A DNA stretch of 64,000 nucleotides, taken from Euglena gracilis. Its lineage: Eukaryota. Of the stretch, positions 2,133 through 48,961 are shown piece after piece. Every line of letters begins with the position of its first letter. Position 1 is the first letter of the stretch. Position numbers and translations under genes: made by a program. The notes beneath the pieces are model-generated. The model made no database searches and had not been told where the DNA came from. It saw only the letters and a list, made by a program, of their open reading frames with translations. The stretch lies in the NCBI GenBank assembly GCA_039621445.1, contig CP154954.1, positions 48,773,847 to 48,837,846 of the forward strand. The letters are read 5' to 3'.

Positions 2133-4943
2133 CGGCGGGTTGCAAAAACATATGCACACATGTGGGACAACACAATGTCCCCATTCTAGGGACAGCACTC
2201 TGGTCCAAACACCTGCCCAGTTTGAGCTGTGGGCTTTCCCAGCCAGTTGTGCTGCCGACAAAAGTCCCCCAAACGAGAGATGGGGAACGTGACAAAAATG
2301 TGAACGTTCGAGCTCAACTCCTTGAACGCTTTTAAGTCCCCTTCCCCTCAAAGGGGGACTTAGCCTCCTTGAACCACCTCAAATGCCATTTGAGGAGTCT
2401 TTCGAGCCTCCTCGAATGTCGTTTGAGCACGTTTGATGAGCCTCCTCCCACGGAGCCGCCTACCGTACCCCTGCCCCCCCCCCCCTGCTCCACGCGGGCG
2501 CCATTCCCCCAGGCAGTGGGGCCCGCCCGATGACGGTCGGGCTGCTGCCGTTGCCGGACCGGATGAAGAACCCGGCCACCGGGAAGCTGGAGGACGTCGC
2601 CCTCTGTCGCTCCTTCTTCACCCGGCAAAGGTGGCCCCGTGGCAGTGGGGGCTGGGCCGGTGCTTTCTCTGCCTTGGCTGAGTAGCCGATGTCTGTCTCC
2701 TGAGGTCGGCCGACCTCACAGTTTGGTATTGGGGGGGGGAAGGGCACCCTCACCGATGGGCTGCCCTTCCCCCCGGCCGGACGTCAAGAAGCTCTTCTAC
2801 ACCAACAGCCCGGCCCTCCCACCCACCCCGGCCGGCCCGGCCTACAACCTGTACTCCAAGGTGCTCCACTCCTTCGGCGACAAGGTGTACGCGTTTGCGT
2901 TCGACGATGCGGTGGGCAGACTTTTGCTGCAGGACCGATTTCCCCCATGGGAATCCACTGGTGTGTGCGTATCTGTTCGATCTCACCCAGGCTTCTGAAT
3001 GGCTTTCCCTTCCATCCCATGGGAAGGAAAGGCTTTTTTTTCACCTGTTTAACAATCATCACCCTCTCCAGAATCATGAGTGTATTCCAAACATTCCAGC
3101 CCCTCAGGAACCAGGGAGAGGTGAGGTCGCGGCTCTCTCTCACCCAGTTACTGGACCCTCCAGGTTTCTCCGCAAAGGTCTGACTGGGGGAGAGGATAGC
3201 ACGCTGCACTCCAGTGACACTGCCCCAGGGCTCCCATAGTGAGTTTCAGTCAGAGGCTTTTTCTGAAATAACTTTTGAAAGGAGAGACGCTTCCCTCCTT
3301 GTCATATGCCTAACCGACATGCTGTGACAGGAGTGTTGGCACCTTTGCCAGACATCTGGGAAATGGTGTCACAAGACCCAGAATCCCGTTTCAAACATCC
3401 ACGGGAGGATTCTCTGCGAGGACGACTGTCGGTCGTCCTTTCTCTTAGTCATCGGGGGAAACACATGAATGCGAACGTGTGCTCTTTTTCTCTTCCTGTC
3501 GCTTGCTGTTGGCCTGGGAAAGGGGTTTCTGCCCCCCATGATTGCCACTGCCCATTGCCAGCCGGGAGCACCGGTGATGTTCCCAGTGCCTTCGCCTTGC
3601 CAGCCCCCTGCCTGCCATTTGCCATATACCATTTGTCATCTCGTCATTTGGGGCCCTGGCTGGGACCCAAATGTTCCGGACGTCAGCACACCGTACGTCG
3701 TGGTCCTGGGGGACATGACCGGCTCCGTCCTGCCTGTCCAGCCGTCGGCCCCCCGTGCTCACAACCAGATGTCTTCCCAGGGCCAAAACAGGAATGCACG
3801 GGGTTCAGACCACCCACCAGCTACCCCTTCCCATTGTTTCAGAGTCGCCGATTTTCAGGTCGAATTTCCCTTGTCTGGTGCCATGGTGGGTGGTAGTCCA
3901 ACCACCCAGCCCACCCCCTCCCCCCCAACCTCCCGGGCGGTGGAGGTGCACCCATCCCTCCCAGGCTTTCCTGCACCGCCCTCATCTGCCCCTAAACATC
4001 GCTTCCGTTCCCTCCTCCCCTACCACAGCCCCAGACAAGGACCACTGGGGCGACGGATGGCGGTGACATCCACGACGACACGCACTACCACGTCACCCTC
4101 ACTCCGGGCTGGGGTGGCAAGGGGACCTACGTAGCGCCGGATGGCAAAACGTTGGACTTTGCGTGGCCGTCCAACTGTGTCATCCCGACCCAGCCCTTTT
4201 CATGGGCCGGCCACGGTCAGAGAACAGAGGTTGCCGGTCGTTGGCCATAGGGGGGAGCACAAAAATCAGAAAGGGAGGTGTATACGTCTCACAAATTCCC
4301 AGAAATCTTGTGATGTGAGAGGCTACCCAACCGATGCTTTGGATGAGTACATGAGACGTTTGCAAAGCATGACCTCACAAAGCATCTTCAACATCAATCT
4401 TCAACACAGGGGCTGAAAAGATTGCTCACAAGGCCCAAAGGCAGATTCTGTGTCAGCAGGCTATGGTGCCCATGTGTGAGTGGGCTCCGCAGACATTGAC
4501 AAGTTACGTCAATACATTGGTTGTTATCCTCAAAAAATGGAAGCTGACTTTTTGCTTTTGGGGCGATTGCATGCCTTTGTCTTGCGTTTTCCCTTGTTTT
4601 CCACCGCCAAAATGACGTTGGCACAGACCGCTGCGATAGCTGAGGCTTCCTTGGGATCCCTGCCAACCCCAACTGCATCACTGGTGAGATTAAAATGCCA
4701 GGTGGATGTGCCGGCCAACAGTGTGCGGGGTTTCAACGAAGTCCTTGCTTTGCCAAGTTGTGTGGCCTTGAGCTTCTGCTTACCTCAGGTGACACTTCTG
4801 GTTTGTTGGTGTAGTTTTTCCAGAGCACCCACCCCTACGTTAGTGCTAATTGCATTTCTGGTGGAAAAAGTTTTGTTGGATTTTCTGTACAGCGTGCGGG
4901 CAACATATTGCGTCCAAAAATATGATCCGTGCAGGCCTGTATA

Positions 4944-4996
<53 letters not shown>

Positions 4997-6346
4997 TGGA
5001 AACCCCCCTCCGTGTCAACGACACTTTTCTGGACCTTTTTTTCCACGTGTTGGCCAAAGTTCTTTCAAGGAAATTCAGCCAAGGCACTTAGTAATTGTGT
5101 CACATTTTCTTCCCAGCCATGGCCTCGAATGATTTCAATGAATTTGGTGATTGGGTGCAATATGAGAGGTCAAGGTCACCATGCATACATGGGACCGGTC
5201 ATTGTTGCCAGCGGGGCCTTTTTTTTATGGTACCGTTGTCGCAGCATGTTGTTGTTGGCAACCCTCCATGCCAACAGCATTTCCTGGAACATTGGTGTGC
5301 CTTGGACAGGAGCCTAGAGCCCTGGGGTGGAAGGATCAAAAGGGGTGGGGTTGGTGCCGACCTCCTGCCGTGTCTCCCTCCCCCCCTGGACCTCCCCCCG
5401 GACCACCGGCAAGGCAGAGGGGGGGGGTTTACATTTGTGCGGTTTGGGTGGTTCATTTCTTCCTTTGCCCCGGAAGGGCTGCCGCGGACGTGGCGTGCCC
5501 CTTCCGCTTCCAGTACGACGTCGGGGCGGGGCGGGACACGTTCGAGGTGGCGGTCAACGTGCGACGGGTGCGGTGCCTCAGCAGCGCGGCGAAGGTCTCC
5601 CTCGGCGTGGACTGGCACGTGGAGGGGACGGCGGTGACCAGGGGTTTCCTTCCGCCGGAGGGCTACCCCTGGTGGGGAGGGAGGCCAGACAGCCAGTGCC
5701 TTTTTTTCCCCAGCCAGCAGCTCCCAGCCAGGCTGCAGACCCCCTCCCCTGGGGGGGGGGGTCCGCTGAAACAAAGTTGGGGCCAGTTCGGAGAATCTGG
5801 GCTGGACCGAAGCGAAGTGCCATTTTTTTTTTTAGGGAAAAGGGGGTCAAAATGGCAAAAAAAATGGCATTTTTGGGATTTCACCTCCCAATTTTGGCTG
5901 AAAATTCCAACCCAACTGGATTTTGGCTCTTTTCGCCTGTTTTTTGGAGGTAGCACCCACGTCCACTTCCAGCCAGTCCCCCCACCCCCCACAGGGCTGT
6001 ACGGGAATCCCTGAAACCCAATGGGTGGTGGATGGGGGAGGGTTGACCACCCCACCCCATCCTGGTAGTAGGGTCCGACCCCCCCCACCAGGCCTTCCCG
6101 TATTTCTAGTTTGTAAATTTCCTTCGCAGCCTTTGACGCCGAAGGAATTTTTTTTGAGCAAGTGCTGTGGTGGGGGGGGTCGACCAACCCCCCCCCCCCT
6201 CCCACCTCCCGTGGGGGGTTGACTCCCCCCACCAGGCCTTCCCATACAGCCCTGCCCTCCCCCCCAAGGGTTTGCAGGACCCCCCCCCCTGAGCCTCAAG
6301 AAAACCCCTGGTGGCGACCCTTTCCTTGGAGGGCGCCCCACGCTAA
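511..6346 (+). CDS. Glycoside hydrolase family 64 beta-1,3-glucanase, multi-exon, 5' part upstream of window (copy 1)
   Basis: Spliced exons give IDTTAVDFFCMP (from 511), VLRILAPNKA, FPADYLQTAIQAVWTHY, QVFGCDG, YNLYSKVLHSFGDKVYAFAFDDAVG (GH64 C-terminal motif), then a C-terminal extension ending TLSLEGAPR-TAA (6316-6346). In-frame introns: 1751-1809, 2914-3187, 3736-4064, 4188-5486, 5636-6315. Confidence 0.85.
5636..6315 (+). other. Non-conventional intron retaining hAT-MITE-like TIR and 8-bp TSD remnant
   Basis: GCGGT|GAC-CAGGGGTTTCCTT ... AAGAAAACCCCTG-GTGGC|GAC. TIR matches 12/13; flanks GCGGTGAC/GTGGCGAC match 6/8; removal restores the frame (EGTAV-TLSLEGAPR*). Copy 2 equivalent is 33597-34293. 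Confidence 0.8.
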
Positions 6347-7391: not shown

Positions 7392-7621
7392 ACCCCCCCC
7401 CCCCCAAATAACACACCCCCCCGGTGTGTTATTTGGGCACCCGAACTGGGGCCCCAGGGGGGGGTGTGTTATTTGGGGGGGGGGTGTTATTTTTACATGG
7501 AAAACCAAAGGAAAACAGGGGGGTGTGTTATTTGGGCGCTCGAAATCGGCCCCCGAGGGGGGGTGTGTTATTTGGGGGGGGGGGTGTTATTTGGGGGGGT
7601 GTGTTATTTGGGGGGGGGGTT
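7392..7621. mobile_element. MITE with TA target duplication (Tc1/mariner-like), private to copy 1
   Basis: TIR A-poly(C)-AAATAACAC / GTGTTATTT-poly(G)-TT, flanked by TA on both sides. Empty site GGAAATATAGTCTTCG at ~35362. Confidence 0.8.
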
Positions 7622-8891: not shown

Positions 8892-11800
8892 ATGCCACTC
8901 TTCTCCAGCAAGCCGCACCGCTTTGAGGAGACAGAGGAGGTGAGCTGGGACTTCTTTCTGCAGAATGTGGGCACCGGTGTGTGTATGTGTGTGCGTGCGT
9001 GCGTGTGTGGGTGCGTGGGTGTGTGCATGCGTGCGTGGGTGCGTGGGTTTGTGTGTGCATGCGTGCGTGCGTGCGTGCTTGTGTGTGTGTGTGCCTTTAT
9101 TTTTGCTATTTGTGGCAACTTTTTGGGCACTTTTGGCCATCCTTTGGCCATTTTAGGCCGCTTTGGGCTATTTTTGACTGTTTTTAGCCAACTTTTAGCA
9201 ATTTTGGCCGAACCAACATTGTATACAAAAAGATCGTCTCTGACCGGGGGGGGGGGTGGTCGTTAGACAAGCCCGGTCGTTGGACAAGGGGGGGGAGGTA
9301 CATTTTCAAAATCCGGGCCTTCGGCCCGAAACCGGGGGGGGGGGTATTATTTCGGCGGCCGAAGTCGGACCCCGAGGGGGGGGGGTATTATTTGGGGGGG
9401 GGGTTAGAGACACACTGAAAGGGTGGTGCACGTTCTCGAATTCCGAATGGATCCATTGGTGATTTTATTTTTTTTGGAAAAATGATTCGCGCGCGCACAC
9501 ACAAAAATGGTCAAAAGTAACCAAAAACAGCCTAAAGTGGCCAAAAATGGGCAAAGGGGGCCAAAGTGTGGCCAACAGTTGCCAAAAGTGGCCAAAAGCG
9601 ACCAAACATGGCAGGGGGGGGGAAATGCGTTTCGCATTTTTTCGCATTTTTGCGCATTTTTTGCGCATTTTTTCAAATTTTCCAAAAATGCGCATTTTTG
9701 CGCATTTTTTCGCATTTTTTTGCGCATTTTTTTTTCATTTTTTTCAGCGCATTTTTTTGCTTTTTGGCATATTTTTTCGTGATTTTCTAAAATTTTCGCA
9801 TTTTTTGACCATTTTTGCAATTTTTTCCAAAAATTTGAAATTTTCGACTTTTTTTTTGAAACTTACATTTTCCTCATTATTCTACATAATTTCTTCAAAT
9901 TTGGTGCCATTTTTGCATGTTTTTGGGTAATTTTTGCATTTTCGTGATTTTTGCGCATTTTTTCTCGGATTTTGCACATTTTTGCGCATTTTTTCCAAAA
10001 ATGCGCATTTTTTGTGCATTTTTTTGCGCATTTTTGCGCATTTTTGCACATTTTTGCGCAATTTTTCCGAGGCCGGGCGAGCGCATTTCCCCCCCCGACA
10101 TGGCGAAAAGCGGTCAAAAATGCCTAAAAATTCCCAAAAGTGCCCCAAAAATGTCCAAAAATGGCCAAAAGTGGCCAACCGTAGTCAAGAAATACTATAA
10201 ATGGCCAAAAACAGCCCAAAAATGGCCATATACCCCCATCTATGGTAAATTTTCCTCCGACTTGGGGTCCACCCCGCTTGTCTAACGACCGCCCCCCCCC
10301 CCCCTGGTCGGAGACGAACATTGGCCATTTTAGCGACCGCCCCCCAGTCAGAGACGAACATTAGTGGTCGCTGGACAAGGGGGGGGGGAGGTAGGTAAAA
10401 ATGAACCTGAAAATGTAGGTAAAAATCACAGTTTCTGACAACAAATTACGAAAAAAATCGATTTTTCTGGATCATCTGACCTCCAAAAAAATGGTAAATT
10501 GCAACAGAAAGTCCAAAAAATGACCCTAAAGGGGGGTTTTGGCGCTACTTTGGCTTCTACGCGACTTCGAAAAATTTCAAAAAAAATTCGAAAAATAATA
10601 CCCCTCCCCCAAATAATACACCCCCCCTCGGGCCGGGACTTTGGGCGAAAAAATGATACCCCGGGGGGTTATTATTTGGGGGGGTTATTTCAGCCATTGG
10701 CTCGAATGGACACAGAAATCGTCAGATCACACGACCACAAGACGCGACAGAGTCGGCGGCCGCCGACGGCCCGAGGGGAGCAGAGGGCCGCATCAGGGCC
10801 AGCCACACACGCGCGCACACACACATTGATTGCCGCTGCAGGAGACGTCCTCATGCACCACGGCACCGGCAAGAACTCCACCATGATGCAGAAGGGCATG
10901 CAGTGCTATTACAGCCACACCGCCATGTTTGTGCGCAACCCGCGGCCCGGTGTCCCCGTCTTCTCCCTCCCTACCCCTTGATATTAATGATCTGCTTCAT
11001 TTCTTGTGCAAACAGTGAGATTCACCCCCTTTTTGTGATTTCGGCTAGGTGTTGCCGACTTGTTTTTTTGTGACCTCAGGAGATGCCCAAATCCCTCCTT
11101 TTTTATTATTATCATTTTTCCCCCTGGATGGTGGCTTTTTTTTTCAGCGATTGACAGAGCAACGTTTTGCTGCCCGACTGTCATGAAAAACATGTAAAAA
11201 AAACACGAAAAGGGGATGATTAGCAGTTCCTTCGACCATTTTTTCCCTTGGTGCTAGCAGCCTCGGAGCGTGCCCAAAACCTCGTGAAAAACAGGCCGCC
11301 CATTTTTTTTTTCAAACCGGCGAACACCCGTGAAAGAGATTTCTGCAAAAGCCTCCTTTTTGCTTTCTCCTGCATGGATTCTTGGAGCAGGAGTTGTGGA
11401 CCAGTGAAAAACCCATGGCGATCCACGTTGAGAGCAGGTCATCACGTGACCGAGTGGTGAGGGCACCAGTTTCAGGGCTCACAACCGACCAGTGGGGAAG
11501 GGCTCTGGGACACAGTGATGGAAGACGTGCAGAAGGATCTTTTGCAGGGATTTCAGAGGAAGATGATGACCCGCTCATGAAGAGCAAGGGGTGTATTGCC
11601 ACTGAATGGGATGTTGAAAAGTGCAAACTCTTTCGCAATCGCGCAAAGGAGTTGGCGTGTCGAGTTTTCACCCCCAAAGAATGTGTATTTGATGCTGAGT
11701 AACAGCATGTTACACAACTATCCTTTTTTTCAGCCTCTCAGGGATAATGGAAAATGAGGAATTGTGTTTAAAACTCAATTGCGCCATGACAAGTGAGTGA

Positions 11801-14800
11801 AATTTAATCTTGTTCGCACAATTTCGCAAGCGAGTTTTCAGCTTTTGTTTGCGCAACTGCACAAGTGATACAGTTAATTTATCCTCACTGGGACCTTTCC
11901 CTGACGTGTTTTTTTTGCCTCTCAGAAATGGATGCATTGGGTGTGCCATGTTCTCCTGAAATCTGTTTCGCACCCCGTTCTATATTTTCCCATCAGCCGT
12001 TGGAGAGGAATGTGATTTGCTGTTATGCAGCCTGACGAAAAAGAGAGTTTTCACAACCCCTTCTTTGGACACCTCATTTCCATGCCTTGAAATACTGCCT
12101 AAAAGATCACACTCATTGGGGTATGATCGATATGGGTTTCGATTATACCTCAACTACATCACTCCAATGGTTGAATATTTAAGCTTTTTTGGGTTGGTTT
12201 AAAATGCCTCTGTTCAACGCCTTGTCCAGGGCGAGTTTTGGGTGTTCACAAAGCTCTTCATTCAATTGGTTTTCTGGACTGGGTCGTATGCTCCTGATTT
12301 GCACCACAAACTGGATAGGCGACGAAAGGGCAGCGCCAGACTCCCCTGAACCCGCTGGAAGAAGCAATCACTGGGTGGACAGCCTTTGAAGCTTGAACTT
12401 GTCGATCAGCTCCCAGGTGGCAGAATGTGTACCACAAAGTCCACAGATTGACAGGTTGTATTTTTGGCACTGTCCGTTGCTGTTTTTGCGATTTGGACTG
12501 GAATCTTCAAATTCGATAGTTTGTGAACTGTCAAGTTTTGAGACACGTGTTTTCATCTAAAAAAACGCGCCCCAAAAACGATCCCAAATAGGCAATAAAT
12601 TTTGGAAATGTTTTAGATTGCGCGATTGCGCAAGGCAAGTCCACTTTTATGTGCTAACTGCGAAAAAGGGTCTGCATGAAAGTGGTTTGGACAAATTAGA
12701 GGAGCGAAACACTGCAAATAAAACAAAGTTTTGGGCCTGCTAACTTCTCCATTATTTGTGAAAAAATTTTCTCCGACATTCACACTGTTGTTGCCAATTT
12801 GGAGGTTACTTCCAGTTTCCAAGCTGAGGTTTAATGCTAGATTTTTGTGTTGTAATTCTTAATTTGATCTAAATCCCAATTTGAAATCACAAATCCTCAA
12901 TCTGTCCCACAAATCACCGATTTAGGAGCTCTTGGAAACTTCCAGAGTTTTGTCAGGAGCTTTTTGCCTAAATGCTCCAAATATTTTTCTACCATTTCTC
13001 CGAGAGCGCCATTTTTACGAACCATTTATCAATCACCTTTTCCGGCATTTTTTTTTAATTCACAATTTTTTTTACCCAGTTTGCGCCCCCACCTTTTTGT
13101 CACGAAGCCCCCAAACGTTTGTTCTGTACCCCACAATCACCTCCCAAAAATGGATCCAGCCGAGACCCCCGCCCCCGGGGACCCTCCCTCTGTGGGGGGG
13201 GGTCCGCAGTCGGCTGGTGCGACGACCCGTCCCCCCCCCCCGGGTCCGAAAACACCTGCGGCTGTCCGCTGCAGACGTGCTGGCGCTGTTCAACGTGGCG
13301 GAGCCCTGCCGCACCGCCATCTACGTCTGGGAGTCGACCGCCCAGGAGCCGGAGGGGACCCGCCTCATCCCGTGGCTGAAGTGGCTGGACCACGAGCGGC
13401 AGCGCAACGGGGAGGGGTACCTCCTCGTGTGGCGCAAGCTGGGCGGCCTGGACCCGGCCCGGGAGGGTGTGTTGGCGCGTTGCGTGGTGTTTCTTTCCGG
13501 TGCATTGCCTTGTGTTGTGTGGTTGCCTTGCGTGGCCAGTCTGGCGATACGTTTGCACTGTACGTGCTGTCTTTGAACAGTCACCATCCCCTGGTCCAGG
13601 GACGTATACATGTGTAGACGCATGCATGGATGGATGTGCATATCATGCACTTATGTGGATGTGTGCAAAGCTATGAATATATGTGTATATAAATGGTGTG
13701 CTGTAGACATGGATGTTTGCTGAGCCCACTAGTCCACTAGTCAGCTAAAGCCATAACCAAGCCAGGAAGGATGTGACTGTGCGAGACCCCATCTTCTTGG
13801 GGGAAATAACTGAATAAAATCATGGAGTTGGGGATGCCACAGACCACCCACTCCACTGAGGGGAAAAAGAGCTTTTATTGTAAGCCCCCTGTTCTTTTTG
13901 ACCATTTTTCGGACCCCCTCCAGGGCTTTTTCAGCCGAAATTTGCAGCAAAAATCCAAAATAAATGGATCACCTCCAAAAATCTGGCCCCCTTGGGATTT
14001 TCAGCCCTGACCCAAAAAGTCGACCAAGGGTCGTACTTGGGGGGGGGGGGGACCTTGTCAATGGTTTGCGCTGCTGCTGGAGGGGGTGGGACGGATCGTT
14101 GTTACTCCGCAATCAGCCCAAGGATTTCTGGTTTTGTCTCAAAAAATGAATTTCATATGAAAGATGGGATAGAATCAAAATTTCAAAGAAAATCACACAG
14201 TTTTTGGGCTATTTTTTTGTATTTTGTTGAAAATTATCCGGATATGTCTTATTTGCGGGGGATATGTTCTATAAGTATCCATATCCTCCCCTCACAGCCA
14301 AGCTCTGGGATTGTATCCGGCAGTCTAGGCACGTCCCGTATGAGAAGCACCGCAGCGAGATGTTCAAGGCGCTGATCAACCTGAACAAGACAGACAAGGT
14401 GGAGTCTATGTTCTGCTCGGAGCTGGTGCACAGCCCGGGCCTTGAGCCGTCTACAAAAAGAGGCCAGAACTTCCTGCCTGGAAGTGTGGGTCCTCCCTCT
14501 CATTTCCATTGTTTGTTGACCCCATACCTGTCTTGAATATGGAAGTCGTGTGGTTGTGTGTGCACCTGAGTTGTTCCCGCTCCCTGCTCCCTGGCACATC
14601 CAAACGTACTCAAGGCATCTCCCCTCCCTCGAGGGCATGCAATCTGGACCATGCCAAACCCTGATGCCATATACATACACACACACACATATGTATATGT
14701 GTGTGTGTGTGTGTGTGTGTGCGTGCGTGCGTGTGTGTGTGTGTGTGCGGGCAAACCACGAGGTGGATTGGATTCTGCCAGGGAGCTGTGCTCAACCGTT

Positions 14801-15167
14801 TCCGTGGCAACTGGCACAGGGGGGGGGCTTCTGCCTGGGGACCGAGACCAGGCTGGCAAGGGCCTTCGCGATGAAGACGGCGGGGCTGGTGTCGGACCGC
14901 ATCGTCGTGTCCAACATGACCACCGCCTCCTTCTCCCACTTCTACCACCACGACTCCAGCAACATCGAGGACGGCCTCCTGAACTGCACCCTGGCTCCGG
15001 AGAAGCGGGTGACGCTGCCCCTGTGTGCCCCACCCCCACCCCACAGGGGTGCTGGCCGGTCCCTTGCCCCACAATGGCACATTCGCATGGACGTGGGGCT
15101 CATCCGCCTGAGTCAGGTGGCCACCTCCCGTGCCATCCGCAGGGTTGCAAAGCCGTTCACAATCTAG
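8892..15167 (+). CDS. Permuted papain-like NlpC/P60 amidase (YiiX/YaeF-type), multi-exon (copy 1)
   Basis: Exons 8892-8976 (MPLFSSK...NVGT), 10842-~10942 (GDVLMHHG...[12 protein letters not shown]), ~13266-13466 (IYVWEST...LVWRKL), 14298-14427 (VPYE...MFCSELV), 14861-15167 ([10 protein letters not shown]...). His (YSH) precedes Cys (FCSELV), as in the permuted family. The 3' end is less certain. Confidence 0.8.
9614..10097. mobile_element. MITE with 8-bp TSD, internally built of GCGCATTTTT repeats, private to copy 1
   Basis: [18 protein letters not shown] / CGCATTTCCCCCCCC; flanks ACATGGCA / ACATGGCG. Empty site AAACATGGCAAAAAG at ~37795. Confidence 0.75.
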
Positions 15168-17516
15168 GCGCTGGCAGTCGTGGCGTCGGCTTCTCCGCAG
15201 CGGTCGCTGTGCGGGTGCATTCCTCCTCACCCTCACACCCTTGCCACTACCGGGGGTATGTACCTTAGCCCCCGTTGCTGATGAAGTGGAACTCTACGGC
15301 CGCCTCTTTTCCTACCCTGTACTGTGATCAGGGTATTAAGTGAGCATTGGTTTTGTATGGGGGGGAGGGGAGGGGGGTTCAGATCCCCCCTTCAGACGGA
15401 AGGGGGGGATGGGACCCCCGGGAACTCAAAATCAAACTCTGGCGCATTGTGCTGGGACAAAAAAAAGTTTTTGTATTCCAATTGTGTGCGTGTTTCCAAT
15501 TTTCAAAAAAATGTGTGCGAATGCGCAATTTTTGGGCCTTTTTCCAAATCCAAAAAATTCTGTGGCTCTTTGTGCCAGATTTTTTTTGCACAGGAGGACC
15601 CCCCCTTCGGGAGGTCCATAACTTCGGGAGGTCCATAATACCCCCTTCCTCCCTGTTCATTTAATACCCCGACTGTACCTCATGCCCCTATCCCTGATCC
15701 ACTTGCAGCCCTACATTGTCTGCGGCAGACCCCTGGCTGTATTGAAGCTCTGGGTTTGTCGTCAGGAGGGGGAAGGCTTGGTGTTGGACCAAAAGCTTTT
15801 AAGTCGCCCAAACAAGGAATGGGTTCGCAGGCTGTTTGACAGACCTCCAGTCCAACGTCTGCGTTGTGCAACGAGTGCCCGTCCCCGAGGGCTGCCCCAT
15901 TCCGTTCTGGGCCACCACCCTTCCTCGTCCCGCCTTTCCCTCCTACGGTCCTCGCGGCTGCCCTCAACGTGCCGTCCAGGCATCCATGCGCACGTCTCCC
16001 TTTTTCTCGTATTCTCACCTCACCCAGACCTTTCCTGAGGAAACGGCTTCAGCAGCTGACCTTTCTCTTGCGAAATTTGAGAATTTTTGTTTAAAAATGT
16101 GTATTGACATTTTTTTTCCAGGCTTCTGACCATAAAAGTGTTGGAGAAAATCACCTTTTTGGATCTTCGTGTCGCCAGAGGTCGAAAAATGTCGATTTTT
16201 TTTTTCCTCAAAGAGACCTGTCTCCTCCCTGTTCTCTCTTCCCTGTTCTCGCTGACTTGTCTGGAGATGCCTGATCTCCCTCAACCACGACGTCCTTCCA
16301 AGCTCGCTTTTGAAGGCAAGGCATTAATTTTAGGGTGCGGAGAATGGATTTTTGTGTGTGGATTGGATCCACTTTGAGCCAAAAACAGCACATGGTGGGG
16401 CAAAGTTGAAGGTTGTTTTTTTTTTAAATCAAAGAGGCCTGCTTCCTCCCGCTGAGCAATTCGCTCCCCTGTGTGTCGTGTCCCGGTTTTGCGCCACAGG
16501 GGTCCCACCGACCCCCTCTGTCCTCATCTCCGCCGGTGCGCGGTGTGTCTGTGGGTCGGTAAATGAGAGCTACTCTCGGAGGACAAAGGTGGTGCTGGTG
16601 ATGGGCCCGTGGCACATCACCGTTGATGGCGTTGCTGCCTGTGCCGGCCTGCCGCCGTGCCTGTCGGGGCCTGTACTCCTGCAGGTGGCAAAAATCCGCT
16701 AAAGTCACAGCCTCGGATCTCTTCTACTGCGGTGCGGCACACGTCGGAACATCCCGTGAGCTCACCCACAAAGAACCCTCTGAAGACGTTCAGTATTATT
16801 GCAGGACATCCTTCCTCCAAACTTCTCTCACAAAGGGCAGGTCGCAGGCTGGCAGGTTTTTTTGGCTGCGAAGAGACGCACATTGAACAAATCCCTTGCT
16901 TTTGTGTGAACTCAGCCCTGACCTTTCACCAATGCGCCCCCCCCCTTCCGAGGGGGGCTGAGTGGGTGTGTCCTCTAGCCAAGCCCCCCCCCCCCGGTTT
17001 GGGCCAAGTGGGTACCCCGCCAGAGGCGGGGGTTTCCCCCGTTTCGGTGCGAAGTGCCGATCAATTTTTGGTCCCCAAAAACCAATTGTGGTCCCCCTGA
17101 GCCCCCCCCCCCCCCAGGCCCCACCGCAGGGGTTTGGACCCCCCCGGGTCCTAAAAAACCTCTCCTGGATAAATATGCTGACCCATACCAAAAATCTACA
17201 GACAAAAATCCAACGCTGACTGTTCAGGCTCACACAGTGGAATGGAAGTGGATGGTCCGCTTCTGAGCCGCAGGGGGTGGGGTTGTACACCCTCATCGAT
17301 TTTTAATATCATCAATTTTTTATCGCTGCTGAAAGTCTGGGGTAATTAGTGCCTCTTGTCCATGGGGGCGACCCCTCCCCCCGACGACATCGATCCCCCG
17401 TACCCATCCCTCATTTTCAACAACACATCCAATTTCCACCAACTCACCAGCACATGACGACCTATCCTCAGGTTTGGGGGGGGGGGCGGGGCACTGACCA
17501 ATGCCAGCCAAAAGGA

Positions 17517-17787: not shown

Positions 17788-20700
17788 ATGGCCCGCGGAA
17801 AAGGCTCTTCAGCCGCCGCCAGGGCCAAGGAGGCCCCGCCTGCCAAGCGGCCCAAGACAGAACCCCCGCAGGTGTCGCGTGTGTTGCTGGGGCGGGGGTG
17901 GCGCAGTGGAAGCGAGGTCTTTTGAGCGGCTGCCTCGTGGGGTGTCCAATGTTGCCGGTGTGGTCTGGTCTGTGGAGACCAAGCCACAGCATCCATCTCC
18001 CTGGCACCTTATCCCCTTTCCGCAACAGCCGGGATGGCAGTGTCAAATGCAAATGCAGTTGAAATGATCCCACCACGGCTCCTTGGGTCACTGACCCCCA
18101 AAGGTTAAACCGCGCTTCTAATCATTCCACCCAGGGGGAGCGACAACCTAACACCGAGCCCAAGGTGGAGCCAAGTGATGAAACAATCCAGTCCGGTGTG
18201 CCTCCTCTCACCCAACAGGTTGTGTTGACCAAAATTGAACCTCCCTCCTGGGGGGGTAACAGTAGGAGGAGGTTCGAGCTCGAACGTTCGAGCTCGAACC
18301 TCCTCGAACGTTTTTGAGCCCCCCCCCCTCTTCGAGGGGGGGGCTTAAAATCCTCCTCGAACGACCTCGAACGACATTCGAGGAGGATTTTGATCCTCCT
18401 CGAATGACCTCGAACGACATTCGAGGAGGATTTTGATCCTCCTCGAACGACCTCGAACGACATTCGAGGAGGATTTTGATCCTCCTCGAACGACCTCGAA
18501 CGACATTCGAGGAGGATTTTGATCCTCCTCGAACGACCTCGAACGACATTCGAGGAGGATTTTGATCCTCCTCGAACGACCTCGAACGACGTTCGAGGAG
18601 GATTTCGATCCTCCTCGAACGACCTCGAACGACATTCGAGGAGGATTTTGATCCTCCTCGAACGACGTTCGAGGAGGATCTCGATCCTCCTCCTACGTAC
18701 ATACATTCAAGTTTCAGTTGCAAGTTTTTTTGGGCTTTGTTAGCATGGTTCATTGTTCTTGATTCTGCTTGTTTGTTTTTTTCTTACGCAGGAATGCACT
18801 TGTTCATAAATATTTTTATTCAGAAATATTCTTATACCGAGAGAATTTCTGAGGTTATTAGAAGGAATAGGGTTAGGGTTAAGACTTCATCCCCAATGGT
18901 TGTAACCATCCCGCTCATCGTTGCTATATTTCCCTCTACAGGGTACACAGCGAACCCAAAAAGTCGCCCAACTAGGGTTAAAAACATGGGGGGACCCGAG
19001 CGAGGCGCCGAAGGCACCGAGCGAGGGTCCCCCCATGTGTATTAACCCTAGTTGGGCGACTCTTTGGGGTGGCTGGTACCTGTAGGGGGAAATTTTCCAC
19101 GCGTCTTAAAAGAAACATATTTTTTCTTACGCAGGAATACACTCATTTATTCAAAAATATTCCCTGAACGGCATTCGAGGAGGATATTGAACTCCTCCTC
19201 AAACGACCTCGAACGACATTCGAGGAGGATTTTGATCCTCCCCGAACGACCTCGAACGACGTTCGAGGAGGATTTCGATCCTCCTCGAACGACCTCGAAC
19301 GACGTTCGAGGAGGATCTCGAACCACCTCGAACGACGTTCGAGGAGGATCGAGATCCTCCTACTACTGTCCATCCCACTACCGTAACCCTCGCCCTCCCT
19401 CCTATTTCAGAACGTGGTCTGAAAATTTTAATTATTGCTCACATGCATTTGTGGACAAGAAACAGGCATGCTGTGCCCTGTACAAATACCATGTGTGTGC
19501 TCACACACGTGCATTTCGATGCCTGCACAAAGAGAAAGCAGCATTGGTGCCGACGCATTGATGCCGACGGCCAATCTTATTTATGTCCGACGGAATGTCC
19601 CAGAACTTACGGCCCAACTGCGCACATGATTTGGATGGAGAGCACCTAATTGACTGTGCTTCAGCACAGTCAACGTGCACACCAGCATGATTCGCAGGGA
19701 GGGTGTGGAAATTGTGAGTAGACAAAACCCACTGATGCAAAAGGATCATTAAAGACGAAGTGTAGGGCCAAACACCCAAATGGGAACGAAATGAACATTT
19801 TTTTTTTGGCTGGAAGTTTCTTGCGAGCTTGACACAGCGTCTGAGGGAATTCCCCCCCCAAAAAACTTTCGGCTTCTCCCCAGCCCCGGAACCACCCACC
19901 CACCCACCCCACCTCTGGGGTCTTCTGATTTAAAAAGAAGGGGGGGCCACCATGAGCATCGAGCACAGCAGGAAGGGGGCTAGACATCGCCATATAGAAC
20001 ACATGAATTTGCGGCGGGGCAACCTCAGAAAACGCACTGCGGGGCTGCCAGAGGTCGTTCCAGTTCACATGTGGCATACAGTAGAGCTCCACACTTAAAT
20101 GTGGGGTACTGTGGGGGATATGTGTGGGGGTGTGATATGTGGGGGGTGTTGGGGGGATGTTGGGGGGTGTCCAGAAACATTAAAGTTGGATGCCCCTAGT
20201 TGCACTGATAAAGGATCTTTGTTATTTTCGTTCTGGGGGTCCCCCCTGGACAAGGCCGAAGGCCGAGTAAGTCAAAAAATGATGCCAAAAATTTCATGTG
20301 TGGGGTACTGTGGGGGTGTGGGGGGTGTGGGGGGGGGTAGTGTGGTTGTTTCTGGGGTACCTGCTTTGGGTCAGTGTAAGTTTGGCAGGCAGAGGGGACC
20401 CTACACCATGCCAAGCATCCAGTGCAAAGCTGGTCGCAAGCGAAGGACACCTGCCCCCCCCCCCCCGGCACCAGTGCCGGCGGCCAAGCCCAAGCCCGTG
20501 GCCGCCGTCTTCCAGCCCAAAACCCCCGTGAAGCAGGAGGTCAAGGCCGCCCGCAGGTCCCCTTCCTGACAAACAAACACAAAACAAACACGCACGCATG
20601 CACACACAACAACATGCACACACTCAACACACACTCAGCACACAACTAGAGGCACCGTCACACTGCTGCTCATCAGATATCCTCATCAGATAGGGGTGAA

Positions 20701-22744
20701 ACACGGTCTGGAGGTGATGGACACAGCCTGACCCAAGCACTGCCAGTTTGTGTAGATTTGCCAGCAGAGACGTACCCCCCCCCCAACGGGCCGTCCATCA
20801 ACCATGGCTATGGCCATCCCCGGAGCGTTTCCATGGCACCGCGCCTCCCCACCAGCAGAGGGCAGGTCCCAGGAGGTCCAATCTCACTGCACAAGGTCAA
20901 CCATACTTCTTTGTAGTAAGTAAAAAGATTGCAGAGTTTCTGTGAAAAATACCCCAAAAAATTTGCGAAATCCTTTTTTCTGCCTCTTTTGCCTTTTTGC
21001 TGTTTGCTGCACCGCGGGGTGAATTCGTCGAAGCTTCCCGCTGGATGTCATGCGGAAGTTTCAATGTGTGCAAGAGGCTTCCTGTGCCCCCCCCCCCCCA
21101 CCCCGTGGCGACCCCCACCGCAGCACGGCGCCGCCCGTCGTGGTGCCGCCTCGCCCCGCCGCTGCCGCCTCCGCCTTCGTGCCGGTGAAGGAGCGGCCGG
21201 CCCCCGCCGGGTCGGGCGGCAACGGGTGCGCCCGGCAGTGGACAACGGAGGCGTGCCTTTCTCTGTGCCACTGTTGCTATCCGGATTGCTACGAAGCAGG
21301 TTACAAGAGGTCCCTGCCCTCCCCCCCCTCTTTTTGGGGAAAGCCCGTGTTCATTGTCTCAAAGGCTATCATTTTCTTTCCGTTGTTACTCGCCATGTGT
21401 CATATGTGATATTTTGGACCGCTTTTTGCACACATTTTCATTTTGCTTCAATTTGGAATCAGTAGATAAAATATTACGCTAAATATCATCTCAAACCCAA
21501 AATTTTGTTCTTTTTTTGTGCTGTATTTTATTCACCCCTCGGCCACATTCGGCTGCCATGTAAAGGAGGTGGGGTTCAATTGAGGGGTGAATTAAAGAAT
21601 GAAATTTTTTTTGGCTTGAGGTAGTTATGGGCCCTAAAGTTAGACCCAAAAGTGGGCCCCTGAGCCCCCCCCCCCCTCCCCAGGGTGGGTGGTTGGGAGG
21701 TTGGGTGTGGATGAGGCGCACTACGACCCTGCAAGAGAACTTTGGGAAGGGGTGTGCAGCTTTTCTGTTTGTTTTTTTTGTCCCCAGGAGGCGGTCGCTG
21801 CCCACCCTTTCATCGACAAGGCCCACTATCGGGCCATCGTCACGACGGACTTCCTCTTCTCGGACGACGACGGGCGGGTGGTGTGCGTCGTGCTGAAGGG
21901 CGCCTACCCGGACTGGGTGCGGGAGTGCGCTGCTGCATAGGGCCGATTGCCTCACGGCCCCTGAGATGGGCCCATTCCACTTCATTTACTGTAACACCCC
22001 CCATCTGGGTCAATCCCATGTTAAAAGCTCTTTTGTATGAATTCCTCTCTTATCAGTACCTGCTTCTTGTCCTTGTCGATGCTCACCTTCTTCTTCAGCA
22101 GGAAAAGGGGTTGTGTTCTGAAGTGTTAATGGCCCCCAGTGCCAGTTCCCTGGGCTTTGTTCTGAGTGACTTGTCACAGGGCCCCCATTTGGAACAAAAT
22201 AAAAAGGCACCAATGGCGCGAGTTGCCAATGCTCAAATCCGGAGCGCCGGCCGGCTCTGCCCCCGACGTCCTGCGGGGCGCTGCCCGGCCGACCTCCCTA
22301 CGGGCAGGCATCTTCGGGGGCGTGGCCCCCATGTCCGGTGTGAACCGTGCCCGTCACACGTTCCCTCTTCCCGTCATTTGCCATGGGAAGCAGCAGCAGT
22401 CTGCTTCTGGCCTCCATGAGTCCATTCCGTGCCTGCCAAGTGGGCTTGGCATTTGTTGGCCGCTCTGCCCTGTGCCCTGGTTGCATGCAACCTCCCAGGA
22501 ATCGCTGGCTACTACGATTACATGGGGGCCCCGGTGGAGCTGAAGGGGCGGAAGACGAGCTTCACCCATGACCACCTCGAGGTCTTTTACTGGTTCAGAG
22601 TGAACTGGTGCCAACCAATTTTTCTTTGGTTGCCTGAAAGTTTTTTTTTCTGCCTCACAAATTTTTCTGTTTGCCAGCTGTTCTCTGCGTACGTGCACAT
22701 GCGTGCGTGTGGCTCTCTCACCCTCCCTCCCTCTCTTTCTCTCT

Positions 22745-22793
<49 letters not shown>

Positions 22794-32500: not shown

Positions 32501-32859
32501 TTCCACCGCCAAAATGATGTTGGCACAGGCCGCTGCGATAGCTGAGGCTTCCTTGGGACTCCTGCCAACCCCAACTCCGTCACCGGCGAGATTAAAATAC
32601 CAGGTGGATGTGCCGGCCAACAGTGTGTGGGGTTTCAACGAAACCCTTGCTTTGTCAAGTTGTGTAGCCTTGAGCTTCTGCTTACCTCAGGTGACACTTC
32701 TGGTTTGTTAGTGTAGTTTTTTCCAGAGCACCCACCCCTACGTTAGGGCTAATTGCATTTCTGGTGGAAAATTTTTGTTGGATTTTCTGTACAGCGTGCG
32801 GGCAATATGCCTGCTTCCACATATTGCATCCAAAAATATGATCCGTGCAGGCCTGTATA

Positions 32860-32940
<81 letters not shown>

Positions 32941-34324
32941 AATGGAAACCCCCCTCCGTGTCAACGACACTTTTCTGGAACTTTTTTTTCACGTGCTGGC
33001 CAAAGTTCTTTCAAGGAAATTCAGCCAAGGCACTTAGTAATTGTGTCGCATTTTCTTCCCAGCCATGGCCTTGAATGATTTCAATGAATTTGGTGATTGG
33101 GTACAATATGAGAGGTCAAGGTCACCATGCATACACGGGACCTGTCATTGTTGCCAGCGGGATCTTTTTTTTATGGTACCGTGCCGTTGTCGCAGCATGT
33201 TGTTGTTGGCAACCCTCCATGCCAACAGCATGGATTTTCATGCATTTTCTGGAACATTGGTGTGTCTTGGACAGGCGCCTAGAGCCCTGGGGTGGAAGGA
33301 TCAAAAGGGGCGGGGTTGGTGCCGACCTCCTGCCGTGTCTCTCTCCCCCCCTGGACCTCCCCCGGACCACCGGCATAGCAGGGGGGGGGTTACATTTGTG
33401 CGGTTTGGGTGGTTCATTTCTTCCTTTGCCCCGGAAGGGCTGCCGCGGACGTGACGTGCCCCTTCCGCTTCCAGTACGACGTCGGGGCGGGGCGGGACAC
33501 GTTCGAGGTGGCGGTCAACGTGCGGCGGGTGCGGTGCCTCAGCAGCGCGGCGAAGGTCTCCCTCGGCGTGGACTGGCACGTGGAGGGGACGGCGGTGACC
33601 AGGGGTTTCCTTCCGCCAAAGGGGACCCTACCCCTGGCGGGGAGGGGGGCCAGACAGCCAGCGCCTTTTTTCTTCCAGCCAGCAGCTCCCAGCCAGGCTG
33701 CAGACCCCCTCCCCTGGGGGGGGGGTCCGCTGAAACAAAGTTGGGGGTCCAGCCAGTTCGGAGAATCCGGGCTGGACCGAAGCGAAGAGCCAAAATTTTT
33801 AGGGAAAGGGGGTCAAAATGGCAAAAAGAATGGCATTTTTGGGTTTTTTGCCTCCAATTTTGGCTGAAAATTCCAACCCAACTGGATTTTGGTCCTTTTC
33901 GCCTGTTTTTTGGAGGTAGCACCCACGTCCACTTCCAGCCAGCCCCCCCCCCCCCACAGGGCTGTACGGGAATCCGTGAAACCCAATGGGTGGTGGATGG
34001 GGGGTTGACCACCCCACCCCATCCTGGTAGTAGGGTCCGACCCCCCCCCCCACCAGGCCTTCCCGTATTTCTGGTGGCGCTGATTTTTAGTTTGTAAATT
34101 TCCTTCTCAGCCTTTGGCGCCGAAGGAATTTTCTTTGAGCAAGTGCTGTGGTGGTGGGGGGGTCGACCAACCCCCCCCTCCCACCTCCCGTGGGGGTTGA
34201 CTCCCCCCACCAGGCCTTCCCATACAGCCCTGCCCTCCCCCCCAAGGGTTTGCAGGACCCCCCCCCCTGCGCCTCAAGAGAACCCCTGGGGGCGACCCTT
34301 TCCTTGGAGGGCGCCCCACGCTGA
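26529..34324 (+). pseudogene. GH64 beta-1,3-glucanase copy 2, 5'-truncated by the duplication junction
   Basis: Begins mid-exon (PDLGQRDPFKSDDPSYYVLYDKVEFTFNDLGVW, 26530-26627; contains the GH64 EFT motif). Intron 26628-28387 (GGGCAG...CTGCGCGG) joins it to IDTTAVDFF. Remaining exons as in copy 1, stop TGA at 34322-34324. No start codon of its own. Confidence 0.75.
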
Positions 34325-36181: not shown

Positions 36182-36245
<64 letters not shown>

Positions 36246-36732
36246 GGGGTGGGTGGGTGGGGGGGTGGGGGGGTGGGTGGGTGTGTGGGTGGGTGGGTGT
36301 GTGGGTGGGTGGTGTTGGAGAACAGGTCCAATGTCAAAGGACAACTGGAAACTTTCTGGCATTGCTAATCTGGGCATGGCCCAGTGTGAGGTCAGCAGAG
36401 GCACCCCATCATGTAGCAAATGACCCCCAACCATTGTTGGAGGACTTGTTGGACCGTTGTTTTCTGCCTGTGTGGCATTGCACATCAATGCGCGACTTCA
36501 TTCCAGCGTCGACACAAGCGCCCCCAGCGGGGGTCAACTTGAACACGGCCCCATCCTGAGCCTTGGCAAAGCCCCCCAACACAGACCTCTTTCCCTACAT
36601 CCTCCTTGCCGGCGGGGAGAGGTTTAGCCAAAAGCAGATGCAGACAGGTTGGGGGGAGGGTTCGAGGGCCCGTCTGCCCTTCGCTCCCTTCCGCTGCCCT
36701 CCAGCTGCAGGCTCGCCTTGGGTTCCGACCCG

Positions 36733-42700: not shown

Positions 42701-42715
42701 GCACACACATATGTG

Positions 42716-42797
<82 letters not shown>

Positions 42798-48930: not shown

Positions 48931-48961
<31 letters not shown>

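Follow-up and report, generated by a model that had tools for sequence, protein, structure and literature searches.

The window analysed here, a stretch of 64,000 nucleotides from Euglena gracilis, is euglenid nuclear DNA, and a local 28-kb tandem duplication within it has left two paralogous copies, A and B. RNA reads from raw runs carrying the same species label (X21 and X22) were placed on copy B, at window positions 28000-47999 and at least 97% likeness, beside a DNA control run (X20) and a set of contigs (X1). Splice evidence for copy A is by homology to copy B, where the RNA joints were measured, and our statements on joints rest on 15 of the 502 RNA joints of copy B; one joint (34330>34684) was excluded from all counts because a single unexplained letter between its sides leaves it with no assignable register. 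The RNA-based exon set of copy B gives one ORF. A Tet_JBP domain at 22420-23562 was the sole Pfam match among the 20 long ORFs scanned, and a search of Rfam found no family in the window.

The intron at the centre of this study lies in copy A. Its parts, and its homolog in copy B, are as follows (here and below, the arrow marks the splice junction).

5636-6315, + strand: focal nonconventional intron of copy A, GAC-CAGGGGTTT...AAACCCCTG-GTGGC followed by exon G (sequence, homologous joint and fold)
5631-5638, + strand: left 8-mer GCGGTGAC, candidate decayed TSD of 5 exonic and 3 intronic nt, 6/8 identical to 6311-6318
6311-6318, + strand: right 8-mer GTGGCGAC, 5 intronic and 3 exonic nt
5992-6254, + strand: nested element CAGGGCTGTACGGG...CCCATACAGCCCTG within the focal intron, of the family of 23743-24362 (16/18 termini, BLAST matches)
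33597-34293, + strand: homolog of the focal intron in copy B, site of the measured RNA joint

That the focal intron is spliced as an earlier note on this DNA had claimed is borne out by this homolog. The joint 33596>34294, which corresponds to 5635/6316 in copy A, is carried by 25 reads of X21, 22 reads of X22 (47 RNA reads together) and one X1 contig, and by no contig and no read of the DNA run X20, so that it is confined to RNA. The borders of the copy-B intron are GA..GC, i.e. neither GT-AG nor GC-AG. A 4-nt repeat, GACC, lets the focal junction slide across five positions, of which the leftmost alone gives N3-CAG..CTG-N5↓G; the 5' end then reads GAC-CAG and the 3' end CTG-GTGGC↓G in copy A and CTG-GGGGC↓G in copy B. 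The two copies are identical over 51 nt on the 5' side of the intron and match at 56/59 positions on the 3' side, and the MFE and centroid RNA folds of 5626-6325 both contain the terminal stem. What had been claimed of the sequence itself, namely the flanks, the ends and a TIR of 12/13, agrees with it; the flanks are identical at 6/8 positions, and flank identity of at least 6/8 arises by chance in about 0.8% of cases (7/832 in an offset control).

The origin of euglenid nonconventional introns and the mechanism of their removal are questions that have been open since the 1990s. These introns are reported to make up 71.8% of all introns in E. agilis (PMC12501133); their removal is independent of the spliceosome, and the excised intron is a circle (PMC11282704). 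A splicing code, 5'-N3CDG-/-CH'GN5-6↓R, has been described, in which the 3- and 5-nt spacers were defined by mutation and with which synthetic 50-bp introns splice (PMC12501133, PNAS 2025). The downstream exon starts with a purine in 55/55 cases, with A at position 2 in 43/55 and C at position 3 in 30/55, and a pyrimidine stands before both junctions in 49/55 (PMC4770533); CCAGG has been described at +3..+7 (PMC11170887). The focal intron has all the published features that are testable here: its borders are not GT-AG, CAG stands at +4..+6 and CTG at -8..-6, the ends pair, the exon starts with a purine, and the intron is removed from RNA.

Copy B holds further introns that bear on this register of 3 nt before CAG and 5 nt after CTG (hereafter 3+5).

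42452-42910, + strand: nonconventional (also GC-AG) intron GCA-CAG..CTG-GCAAG↓G, homolog of 14428-14860; 32 + 22 reads
43376-43978, + strand: nonconventional intron GAT-CAGGGTATTAA..TTAATACCCCG-ACTGT↓A holding the MITE at 43465; contig loose ends at 43375 and 43974
30808-31082, + strand: homolog of 2914-3187; 34-nt exon side and contig bookkeeping
29614-29690, + strand: homolog of the corrected intron 1733-1809, AAC-CAGGCAGCCC..GGGCTGCCTG-TCGGG↓G; the end of a contig piece at 29612 and the 766-nt bookkeeping agree with it
32090-33447, + strand: homolog of 4188-5486, ACC-CAGCCCTT..AAGGGCTG-CCGCG↓G; RNA depth near 0 inside, bookkeeping and ORF continuity fit
46200-46466, + strand: conventional GT-AG intron of 267 nt; RNA joint 46196>46464, cut +3
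41045-42321: GT-AG intron containing the MITE at 41310; RNA
29808-30424, + strand: RNA-supported non-GT-AG intron outside the 3+5 register; RNA joints that fit no register
34886-35891: non-GT-AG intron with 5+5 spacers; RNA joints
30516-30665, 31118-31558 and 44020-44189: non-GT-AG introns with a spacer sum of 9; RNA joints

The eight introns that the earlier note had listed fared unevenly, one being contradicted and one needing a corrected 5' end. Intron 14428-14860 is confirmed through its homolog 42452-42910 (54 reads), with borders that can also be read as GC..AG, and introns 2914-3187 and 4188-5486 are backed indirectly by the 34-nt exon side, the depth profile and an exact contig-length bookkeeping (766 nt). 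For intron 1751-1809 the 3' end stands and the rule still holds, but the 5' end is more likely at 1733, at the outer CAGGCAGCCC/GGGCTGCCTG stem; for 26628-28387 the 3' end alone is consistent with the data, a contig piece starting at 28387. The TAG variant 21935-22264 lies outside the stretch on which RNA was placed. The intron proposed at 17866-20458 is at odds with the RNA of copy B, which gives the 267-nt GT-AG intron 46200-46466; this intron starts 6 nt downstream of where the proposed 5' site falls in copy B. Removal of the listed introns had been said to restore the frame in each case; taken alone they give no single ORF, but the statement becomes true once unlisted introns are added.

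Non-GT-AG introns of copy B number 15, of which nine come from direct joints, one from contig loose ends and five from contig bookkeeping. The 3+5 register is found in 10 of these 15 RNA-supported or inferred introns; by type of evidence, it accounts for 4/9 of those from direct joints, the one from loose ends and 5/5 of those from bookkeeping. The remaining five lack 3+5 spacers (three sum to 9, one has 5+5 and one fits nothing), and four of the 10 that fit the register do so without the CAG/CTG pair, their terminal triplets being CAG/ATG, CAG/CCG, CGT/ACG and CAC/GTG.

Four young MITEs with CAG...CTG ends and perfect 8-bp TSDs, as reported previously from the sequence, were confirmed.

37223-37520, unstranded: young MITE of family 1 (TIR CAGGCATTTGCTTAAGG); TSD CTAACGAC at 37215-37222 and 37521-37528; empty site in copy A at 9239-9286 (minus strand), 0 substitutions in 48 nt
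41310-41746, unstranded: young MITE of family 1; TSD GCCTCAAA; within GT-AG intron 41045-42321; the copy-A flank differs by a further indel and gives no clean empty site
43465-43728, unstranded: young MITE of family 1; TSD GATGGGAC; within nonconventional intron 43376-43978; empty site in copy A at 15388-15435, 0 substitutions
46699-46963, unstranded: young MITE of family 2; TSD ATTTCGAT; empty site in copy A at 19493-19540, 1 substitution

These elements measure 264-437 bp, have perfect TIR runs of 10-17 nt and belong to at least two families, with three family-1 copies found within the window by BLAST. Their TSDs are the sole perfect cases among 165 CAG..CTG pairs with a TIR of at least 10/12, and no pair scores 7/8. 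Because copy A holds exact empty sites for three of the four, with 0-1 substitution in 48 nt, these three moved after the segmental duplication. Word depth in the DNA run is 3e4-1.3e5 in the bins that contain MITEs and about 30-50 elsewhere, a measure that is not a copy number and is raised in part by low-complexity runs. Neither the family-1 TIR nor a conserved internal 37-mer had any match when metagenomes were scanned. An exonic position was found for none of the four elements (two are intronic, in a GT-AG and a nonconventional intron respectively, one is intergenic and one unplaced), and among the 15 of 502 joints none skips a MITE in the 3+5 register, which is uninformative about MITE splicing. 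Two joints near the MITE at 37223 (37173>38105 and 37224>37535) also occur in the DNA run and were set aside as other genomic repeat copies.

All four MITEs, taken with their TSDs, fit the published code in the form N3-CDG..CH'G-N5↓R. The arithmetic put forward in the earlier note holds as well: removal in silico in the 3+5 register takes away the element plus one TSD and returns the pre-insertion sequence in 4/4 cases. The tolerance for N6 in the published code is incompatible with such frame restoration, and the equation 3+5=8 alone is weak evidence, as 8 is one of about nine plausible spacer sums. TSD positions 5-8 of the four MITEs read C↓GAC, C↓AAA, G↓GAC and C↓GAT, so that R-A stands at positions 6-7 in every one (R-A frequency in the window 0.12; P ~2e-4) and GAC in two of the four; GAC also starts the downstream exon of 6 of the 11 introns that fit the geometry, against a window frequency of 0.014. 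The junction consensus Y↓R-A-C of euglenid introns (PMC4770533), which occurs at both junctions, is matched by TSD positions 5-8 of the MITEs.

An excess of identity between the flanking 8-mers had been expected of nonconventional introns, and among 10-11 older ones identity does not rise significantly above the permuted expectation, with 38/88 positions identical against 32.3 expected for n=11 (permutation P=0.078) and 35/80 against 30.2 for n=10 (P=0.125). Since the two junctions have a consensus in common, permutation alone already gives 37%. The intron that holds the MITE at 43465 has flanks ACTGTGAT and ACTGTACC, identical at 5/8 positions. Among pairs with a TIR of at least 11/12, flank identity of at least 6/8 occurs in 8/32 against 1/32 in the offset control, the eight including A and B copies of the same loci.

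A kinship between intron ends and MITE TIR families had also been proposed, and here the termini and the interiors part company. When 2284 18-mers starting with CAG were ranked by likeness to the MITE TIRs, the top sequences from outside the families were intron ends: for family 2 the 3' end of the focal intron (15/18), and for family 1 the 5' end of 30808-31082, CAGGCTCTTGCTGCAGGA in copy B and CAGACTTTTGCTGCAGGA in copy A (14/18 in both). The proposed relation of the focal intron to the MITE at 46699 is confined to these termini, 15/18 at best: when the focal intron was compared with the MITEs by BLAST, all matches were of low complexity, with no interior similarity to the MITE at 46699, and the description of its interior as MITE-like is not borne out.

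CAG-type termini are typical of hAT elements. By these termini, by TSD length and by the A at TSD position 7 (4/4, with T at position 2 in 2/4, in a sample of n=4), the CAG...CTG MITEs appear hAT-like, an assignment that is unproven. No transposase domain was found in the Pfam scan of the 20 long ORFs. Hermes, a hAT element, makes 8-bp TSDs with the preference nTnnnnAn (PMC10368747), and nonautonomous hAT elements such as those of Hermes and hobo (PMC10368747, PMC3276498) resemble ours in their 8-bp TSDs, short TIRs and A at TSD position 7; they differ in the T at TSD position 2, present in only 2/4 here, and family 1 starts with CAGGC. An intron made by the hAT element Ds of maize is cited in PMC3935182. 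P elements likewise make 8-bp TSDs, at the target GTCCGGAC (PMC3276498). Merlin elements, documented in E. gracilis, are euglenid DNA transposons with 8-bp TSDs, as are the MITEs here, but their TIRs start with GG (PMC8101967), whereas the MITEs start with CAG at boundaries that were taken from empty sites for 46699 and 41310.

A mobile origin of nonconventional introns in general, TSD-like repeats at their ends and a splicing pathway that buffers insertions are all published (PMC3935182, PMC11282704, PMC12501133), as the earlier note had recognized for the general idea, and most of the splicing-reporter test that it proposed has already been carried out, on natural as well as synthetic introns. 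Closest to our observations is intron 4 of gapC in one E. agilis strain, a recently gained nonconventional intron with eight-nucleotide direct repeats at its junctions, as an insertion model predicts; its authors read the repeats as a trace of double-strand-break (DSB) repair, and the portions of that paper available to us give no transposon family, TSD register or series of empty sites (PMC4770533). The introner elements of Micromonas, dinoflagellates and the tunicate Fritillaria are also alike, being MITE-like DNA transposons that turn into introns on insertion, with TSDs and TIRs at the junctions (PMC11282704). Those introns are spliceosomal, however, with GT/AG-like signals that come from the element or from its TSD (PMC11282704), whereas here a euglenid pathway that measures a hairpin would act, and restoration would depend on the spacer sum being equal to the TSD length, a comparison that draws on one 64-kb window. 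The link between 8-bp TSDs and the 3+5 register, or with hAT elements, is stated in no paper found by our literature search, whose reach did not extend to supplements and a 2021 J Mol Biol paper on circular RNA. What is apparently new, not having been found in print, is the explicit 3+5=8 restoration argument, the live CAG...CTG MITE families and the match of the MITE target site to the intron junction consensus.

We consider it probable that nonconventional introns such as 5636-6315 are old CAG...CTG insertions with 8-bp TSDs that are removed precisely by 3+5 splicing. Such MITEs moved after the 28-kb tandem duplication, as the empty sites record. The splicing pathway recognizes the terminal CAG/CTG hairpin and cuts 3 nt upstream of CAG and 5 nt downstream of CTG, a rule established by others and agreeing with the junction observed here. 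As 3+5=8, the two cuts would strike each TSD copy at one and the same point, between its bases 5 and 6. An exonic CAG...CTG element in either orientation would then be lost with exactly one TSD equivalent, leaving the mRNA as it was before insertion. After insertion N3 and N5, the parts of the TSDs that lie within the intron, would be free to drift, which would explain the low flank identity of older introns, and the junction consensus (Y↓R at both junctions, R-A-C at the exon start and C at +3) would be the element's target-site preference, seen twice. Judged from its sequence, the focal intron is most likely one of these insertions, and an old one, with a 12/13 TIR related to family 2, a TSD decayed to 6/8 and a second element nested inside. 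By pure inference, the offset of 3 against 5 might leave the hairpin with a basal 2-nt 3' overhang, hinting at a structure-measuring, RNase III-like nuclease. On the wider proposition, that the whole CAG-CTG class, comprising most introns in these genomes, represents fossil hAT-like insertions with 8-bp TSDs, we are evenly divided; splicing would on that account be a 'precise excision' at the RNA level, exonic insertions would be born neutral, and the junction consensus would have originated as a transposase target preference.

It is unlikely, in our judgement, that the resemblance is convergence or coincidence, the splicing code having evolved on its own, the introns having come by other routes (such as the DSB repair proposed in 2016), the TIRs being selected hairpins, the MITEs being unrelated and the 6/8 flanks reflecting shared consensus. 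Such a history would sit well with the non-significant flank identity of the older introns and its high permuted expectation, with the dissimilar interiors of the focal intron and the MITE at 46699, with the lack of CAG/CTG in 4/10 geometry-fitting introns and with the reading of 8-nt repeats as a DSB-repair trace by the 2016 authors (PMC4770533). It must, however, make accidents of the same terminal triplets, the pairing adjacent to them, a spacer sum equal to the TSD length, the identity of TSD positions 5-8 with the junction consensus, and the top rank of intron ends as MITE-TIR matches among 2284 candidates. DSB repair, moreover, predicts repeats of variable length, whereas the young insertions here have 8 bp in 4/4.

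The geometry of TSD and splicing would stand even if a non-hAT transposase (of the P superfamily, of a Merlin relative or of an undescribed family) mobilized the CAG...CTG elements, a substitution that we lean against, in part because their termini are of the type usual in hAT. It would accord with the finding of no hAT domain among the 20 ORFs scanned, with a T at TSD position 2 in just 2/4, and with a literature search on Euglena, hAT and transposase that gave no report of hAT in Euglena; the P target GTCCGGAC ends in GAC, like two of the four TSDs here (PMC3276498), and E. gracilis has Merlin families that make 8-bp TSDs (PMC8101967). Merlin TIRs nevertheless start with GG and not CAG (PMC8101967), and the 8-bp TSD with A at position 7 in 4/4 suits nTnnnnAn (PMC10368747). 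Quite improbable, we think, is the reverse direction, in which the splicing rule came first and the MITEs descend from nonconventional introns, or were selected to mimic them, and so survive in gene-dense DNA. The exact fit of 4/4 elements, down to the purine at TSD position 6, would be expected of such mimics, and introner elements elsewhere do carry or co-opt splice signals (PMC11282704); yet it is the transposase and not the element sequence that sets TSD length, and all four young copies are outside exons, where such selection does not act. The reverse direction differs from the insertion reading in historical order alone and not in present-day working.

If the insertion reading is right, euglenids would show massive intron gain by a route independent of the spliceosome. 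The MITE hypothesis was put forward in 2013 by authors who noted that transposable elements were not yet known from euglenid genomes; the window supplies the object that it was missing, namely mobile CAG...CTG elements that have 8-bp TSDs and empty sites and lie beside nonconventional introns verified by RNA. The 3+5=8 reading sharpens this already published idea on intron origin and joins three published facts: the spacer lengths, the Y↓R that the two junctions share along with R-A-C opening the exon and C at +3, and the eight-nucleotide repeats of a new intron.

Elsewhere in the duplication, an insertion at 9614-10097 is present in copy A only, and the GG-starting TIR of Merlin (PMC8101967) suits it better than it does the CAG...CTG families.

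The window, a GC-rich stretch of nuclear DNA whose introns are of the euglenid type, contains a multi-gene unit of about 28 kb in tandem segmental duplication; copy A (~248–26531) and copy B (~28112–59349) are 92–94% identical. This arrangement is highly useful, since insertions in one copy can be judged against the other as an outgroup. Our evidence comprised the 64-kb window, public reads and published papers. All four CAG...CTG elements that the earlier note described as young MITEs are real in the window sequence, each with an 8-bp target-site duplication (TSD).

Young MITEs and their surroundings.
37223–37520, MITE, TSD CTAACGAC, between genes
41310–41746, MITE, TSD GCCTCAAA, inside a GT-AG intron
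43465–43728, MITE, TSD GATGGGAC, inside the nonconventional intron 43376–43978
46699–46963, MITE, TSD ATTTCGAT, downstream of an RNA-supported exon

None of the four lies in an exon. Among all CAG...CTG pairs 40–3000 nt apart with terminal inverted repeats (TIRs) matching at 10 or more of 12 positions (n = 165), exactly these four had flanks identical at 8/8 positions, and none had 7/8. For three of them copy A has an exact empty site, in which the 8-mer occurs once and the 48 nt compared show 0, 0 and 1 substitution; the fourth site differs by an additional indel. The empty sites therefore mark the insertions as transposition events that postdate the duplication. The elements at 37223, 41310 and 43465 form one family (TIR CAGGC[A/T]TTTGCTTAAGG, internal blocks 97% alike), and that at 46699 belongs to a separate one (TIR CAGGGGTTTTTTT). 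Over the bins that contain MITEs, word depth in a DNA run exceeded that elsewhere by orders of magnitude, though such depth does not measure copy number. A further CAG...CTG family, the third (CAGGGCAGAACGGGAATC), occupies 23743–24362 and 56963–57593; its TIR is a perfect 12/12 match and its flanks are C-rich (6/8). A nested copy lies inside the focal intron, 5636–6315 (at 5992–6254), and inside that intron's copy B homolog (at 33957–34232).

The focal intron, checked directly in the window, matches its earlier description: its borders read GCGGT^GAC-CAGGGGTTTCCTT ... AAGAAAACCCCTG-GTGGC^GAC (carets mark junctions), its inverted repeat 12/13, and its flanking 8-mers are 6/8 identical. For RNA mapping, two raw RNA-seq runs (X21, X22), a contig set of probable RNA origin (X1) and a DNA-like contig set (X20) were compared at ≥ 97% likeness with copy B 28000–47999, chosen because the intron homologs and all four young MITEs are both there. 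The joint 33596>34294, the exact homolog of 5635^6316, was found in 25 X21 reads, 22 X22 reads and one X1 contig, and in no X20 sequence, which bears out splicing of the copy B homolog. A 4-nt repeat, GACC, lets the joint slide over five positions, only the leftmost of which gives N3-CAG...CTG-N5^G. By homology copy A is probably spliced at 5635^6316 as well, with 51 nt identical on the 5' side and 56/59 on the 3' side. The intron ends are paired in an RNA fold of 5626–6325, and the intron lies nine codons ahead of its gene's stop codon. The interior had also been called MITE-like; the nested element at 5992–6254 gives part of this look, and BLAST found no similarity between the interior and MITE 46699.

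Copy B yielded 15 non-GT-AG introns: nine are read from the joints listed (15 of 502), one from loose ends of contigs, and five follow from contig-length bookkeeping. The register of joint 34330>34684 could not be assigned, and it is not counted. In ten introns the terminal stem is preceded by 3 nt and followed by 5 nt; six of them have CAG/CTG, the others CAG/ATG, CAG/CCG, CGT/ACG and CAC/GTG. In three more the spacers add up to 9, another is 5+5, and the last fits no such pattern. Four of the joints listed are ordinary GT-AG. This mix agrees with the 61.2% of nonconventional introns reported to fit the code N3-CDG..CH'G-N5^R (PMC12501133). The inferred introns 28551–28656 and 29074–29450 keep the 3+5 register around stems ending CGT/ACG and CAC/GTG, which suggests that cuts are measured from the hairpin base rather than from the triplet itself. 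By pure inference, cuts placed 3 nt ahead of the stem and 5 nt behind it, in 5636–6315 and in all other 3+5 introns, would release a hairpin with a 2-nt 3' overhang, a geometry typical of RNase III-type enzymes.

The other introns proposed from sequence fared unevenly. Intron 14428–14860, which also reads GC..AG, is confirmed through its homolog 42452–42910 (54 reads). Support for 2914–3187 and 4188–5486 is indirect, as exon side, RNA depth and contig-length bookkeeping all fit: for their homologs, joint 31116>31558 has an exon side of 34 nt, RNA depth inside 32090–33447 is near zero, and the 766 nt left beyond 29612 in contig record 1 equal the exact sum of the predicted exons. For 1751–1809 the 3' end held and the 5' end is more likely another: a contig piece ending at 29612 points 18 nt upstream (copy A 1733), to an outer, better stem (CAGGCAGCCC/GGGCTGCCTG) that keeps the 3+5 register. 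Intron 17866–20458 found no support, copy B RNA having a 267-nt GT-AG intron that starts 6 nt downstream of the homologous 5' site, and 26628–28387 is consistent at its 3' end only. By themselves the proposed introns give no single ORF; the RNA-supported set places nine exons in one frame.

In favour of the proposed link between MITEs and introns, the MITEs with their TSDs fit the published code in 4/4 cases, and in-silico removal from 3 nt ahead of the CAG to 5 nt beyond the CTG restores the pre-insertion sequence in 4/4. Published experiments fix the 5' spacer at 3 nt and put the optimum of the 3' spacer at 5 nt, with 6 tolerated; wholly synthetic 50-bp hairpin introns also splice (PMC12501133). 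From these rules such an element, placed in an exon, is predicted to splice out. The 15 joints listed of 502 include none that skips a MITE in the 3+5 register. A further line of support, absent from the earlier note, comes from TSD positions 5^6–8, which read C^GAC, C^AAA, G^GAC and C^GAT. Among 55 E. agilis introns, a pyrimidine precedes both junctions (49/55 each), a purine follows them (51/55 and 55/55), and exon positions 2 and 3 are A in 43/55 and C in 30/55 (PMC4770533); intron position +3 is C (PMC11170887). In the 3+5 register both junctions are one TSD position seen twice, which would account for this symmetric consensus. GAC starts the downstream exon in 6/11 geometry-fitting introns of the window, where its frequency is 0.014. 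A ranking of 2284 18-mers that start with CAG, family members aside, puts the 3' end of the focal intron closest to the TIR of MITE 46699 (15/18) and the 5' end of intron 2914–3187 closest to that of the three-member family (14/18).

A last line of support is that an intron restricted to one E. agilis strain carries eight-nucleotide direct repeats, read by its authors as double-strand-break repair (PMC4770533). Against the link, flank 8-mer identity among older introns (38/88 versus 32.3 expected, P = 0.078; 35/80 versus 30.2, P = 0.125) is not significant with the shared junction consensus taken into account, and a spacer sum of 8 is by itself weak evidence. The earlier observation was largely right, and its interpretation is plausible and has stronger support than was then known, yet is unproven.

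A hAT assignment of the MITEs is favoured by their CAG termini, which typify hAT elements, by the 8-bp TSDs (4/4) and by the A at TSD position 7 (4/4). The last fits the hAT target nTnnnnAn (PMC10368747), whose T at position 2 occurs in just 2/4. TSDs of 8 bp are likewise made by P elements, whose target ends in GAC (PMC3276498), and by Merlin elements known from E. gracilis, which start with GG (PMC8101967); the MITEs start with CAG. A 484-bp insertion found only in copy A (9614–10097) has G-run termini GGGGGGGGGAAATGCG / CGGGGGGGGAAATGCG and an 8-bp duplication ACATGGCA/ACATGGCG (7/8 match); its GG-type ends would suit the Merlin elements better than those of the CAG families do. No transposase domain was found in the 20 long window ORFs scanned, and 'hAT-like' is our best guess for the MITEs, not a finding.

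Parts of the proposal are in print: a MITE origin of introns in 2013 (PMC3935182), the 8-nt repeats of a newly gained intron in 2016 (PMC4770533), TSD-like repeats with CAG/CTG as TIRs in 2024 (PMC11282704), and the 3-nt/5-nt spacers with the suggestion that this pathway mitigates insertions in 2025 (PMC12501133). In the published literature searched (without supplements and some non-open papers), we found no mobile euglenid CAG...CTG elements with 8-bp TSDs, no exact-restoration argument from 3+5=8, no hAT assignment, and no proposal that the junction consensus is a target preference seen in duplicate. The proposal is an existing hypothesis made sharper, and not a new kind of system.

Other features of the window include a 218-bp palindromic insertion beside TA, in copy A only (7392–7609, CCCCCCCCCCAAATAACAC... 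/ ...GTGTTATTTGGGGGGGGGG), which may be a TA-duplicating MITE of another superfamily. Copy B alone has a satellite array (48587–51508, ~14–18 copies of ~163-bp units), followed by long TACC and TACA microsatellites (52767–53681); the array is part of a 5.9-kb stretch absent from copy A. A contig piece starting at 28387 suggests a transcript crossing the A/B boundary. One RNA contig begins at 46104; ahead of this point it has adapter letters and a run of T closed by C, which we take to be a possible spliced-leader end, so that this may be a trans-splice acceptor. The ORF at 22420–23562 encodes a Tet/JBP 2OG-Fe(II) oxygenase domain (Pfam PF12851, E = 2.8e-10), the sole Pfam match among the 20 ORFs scanned.
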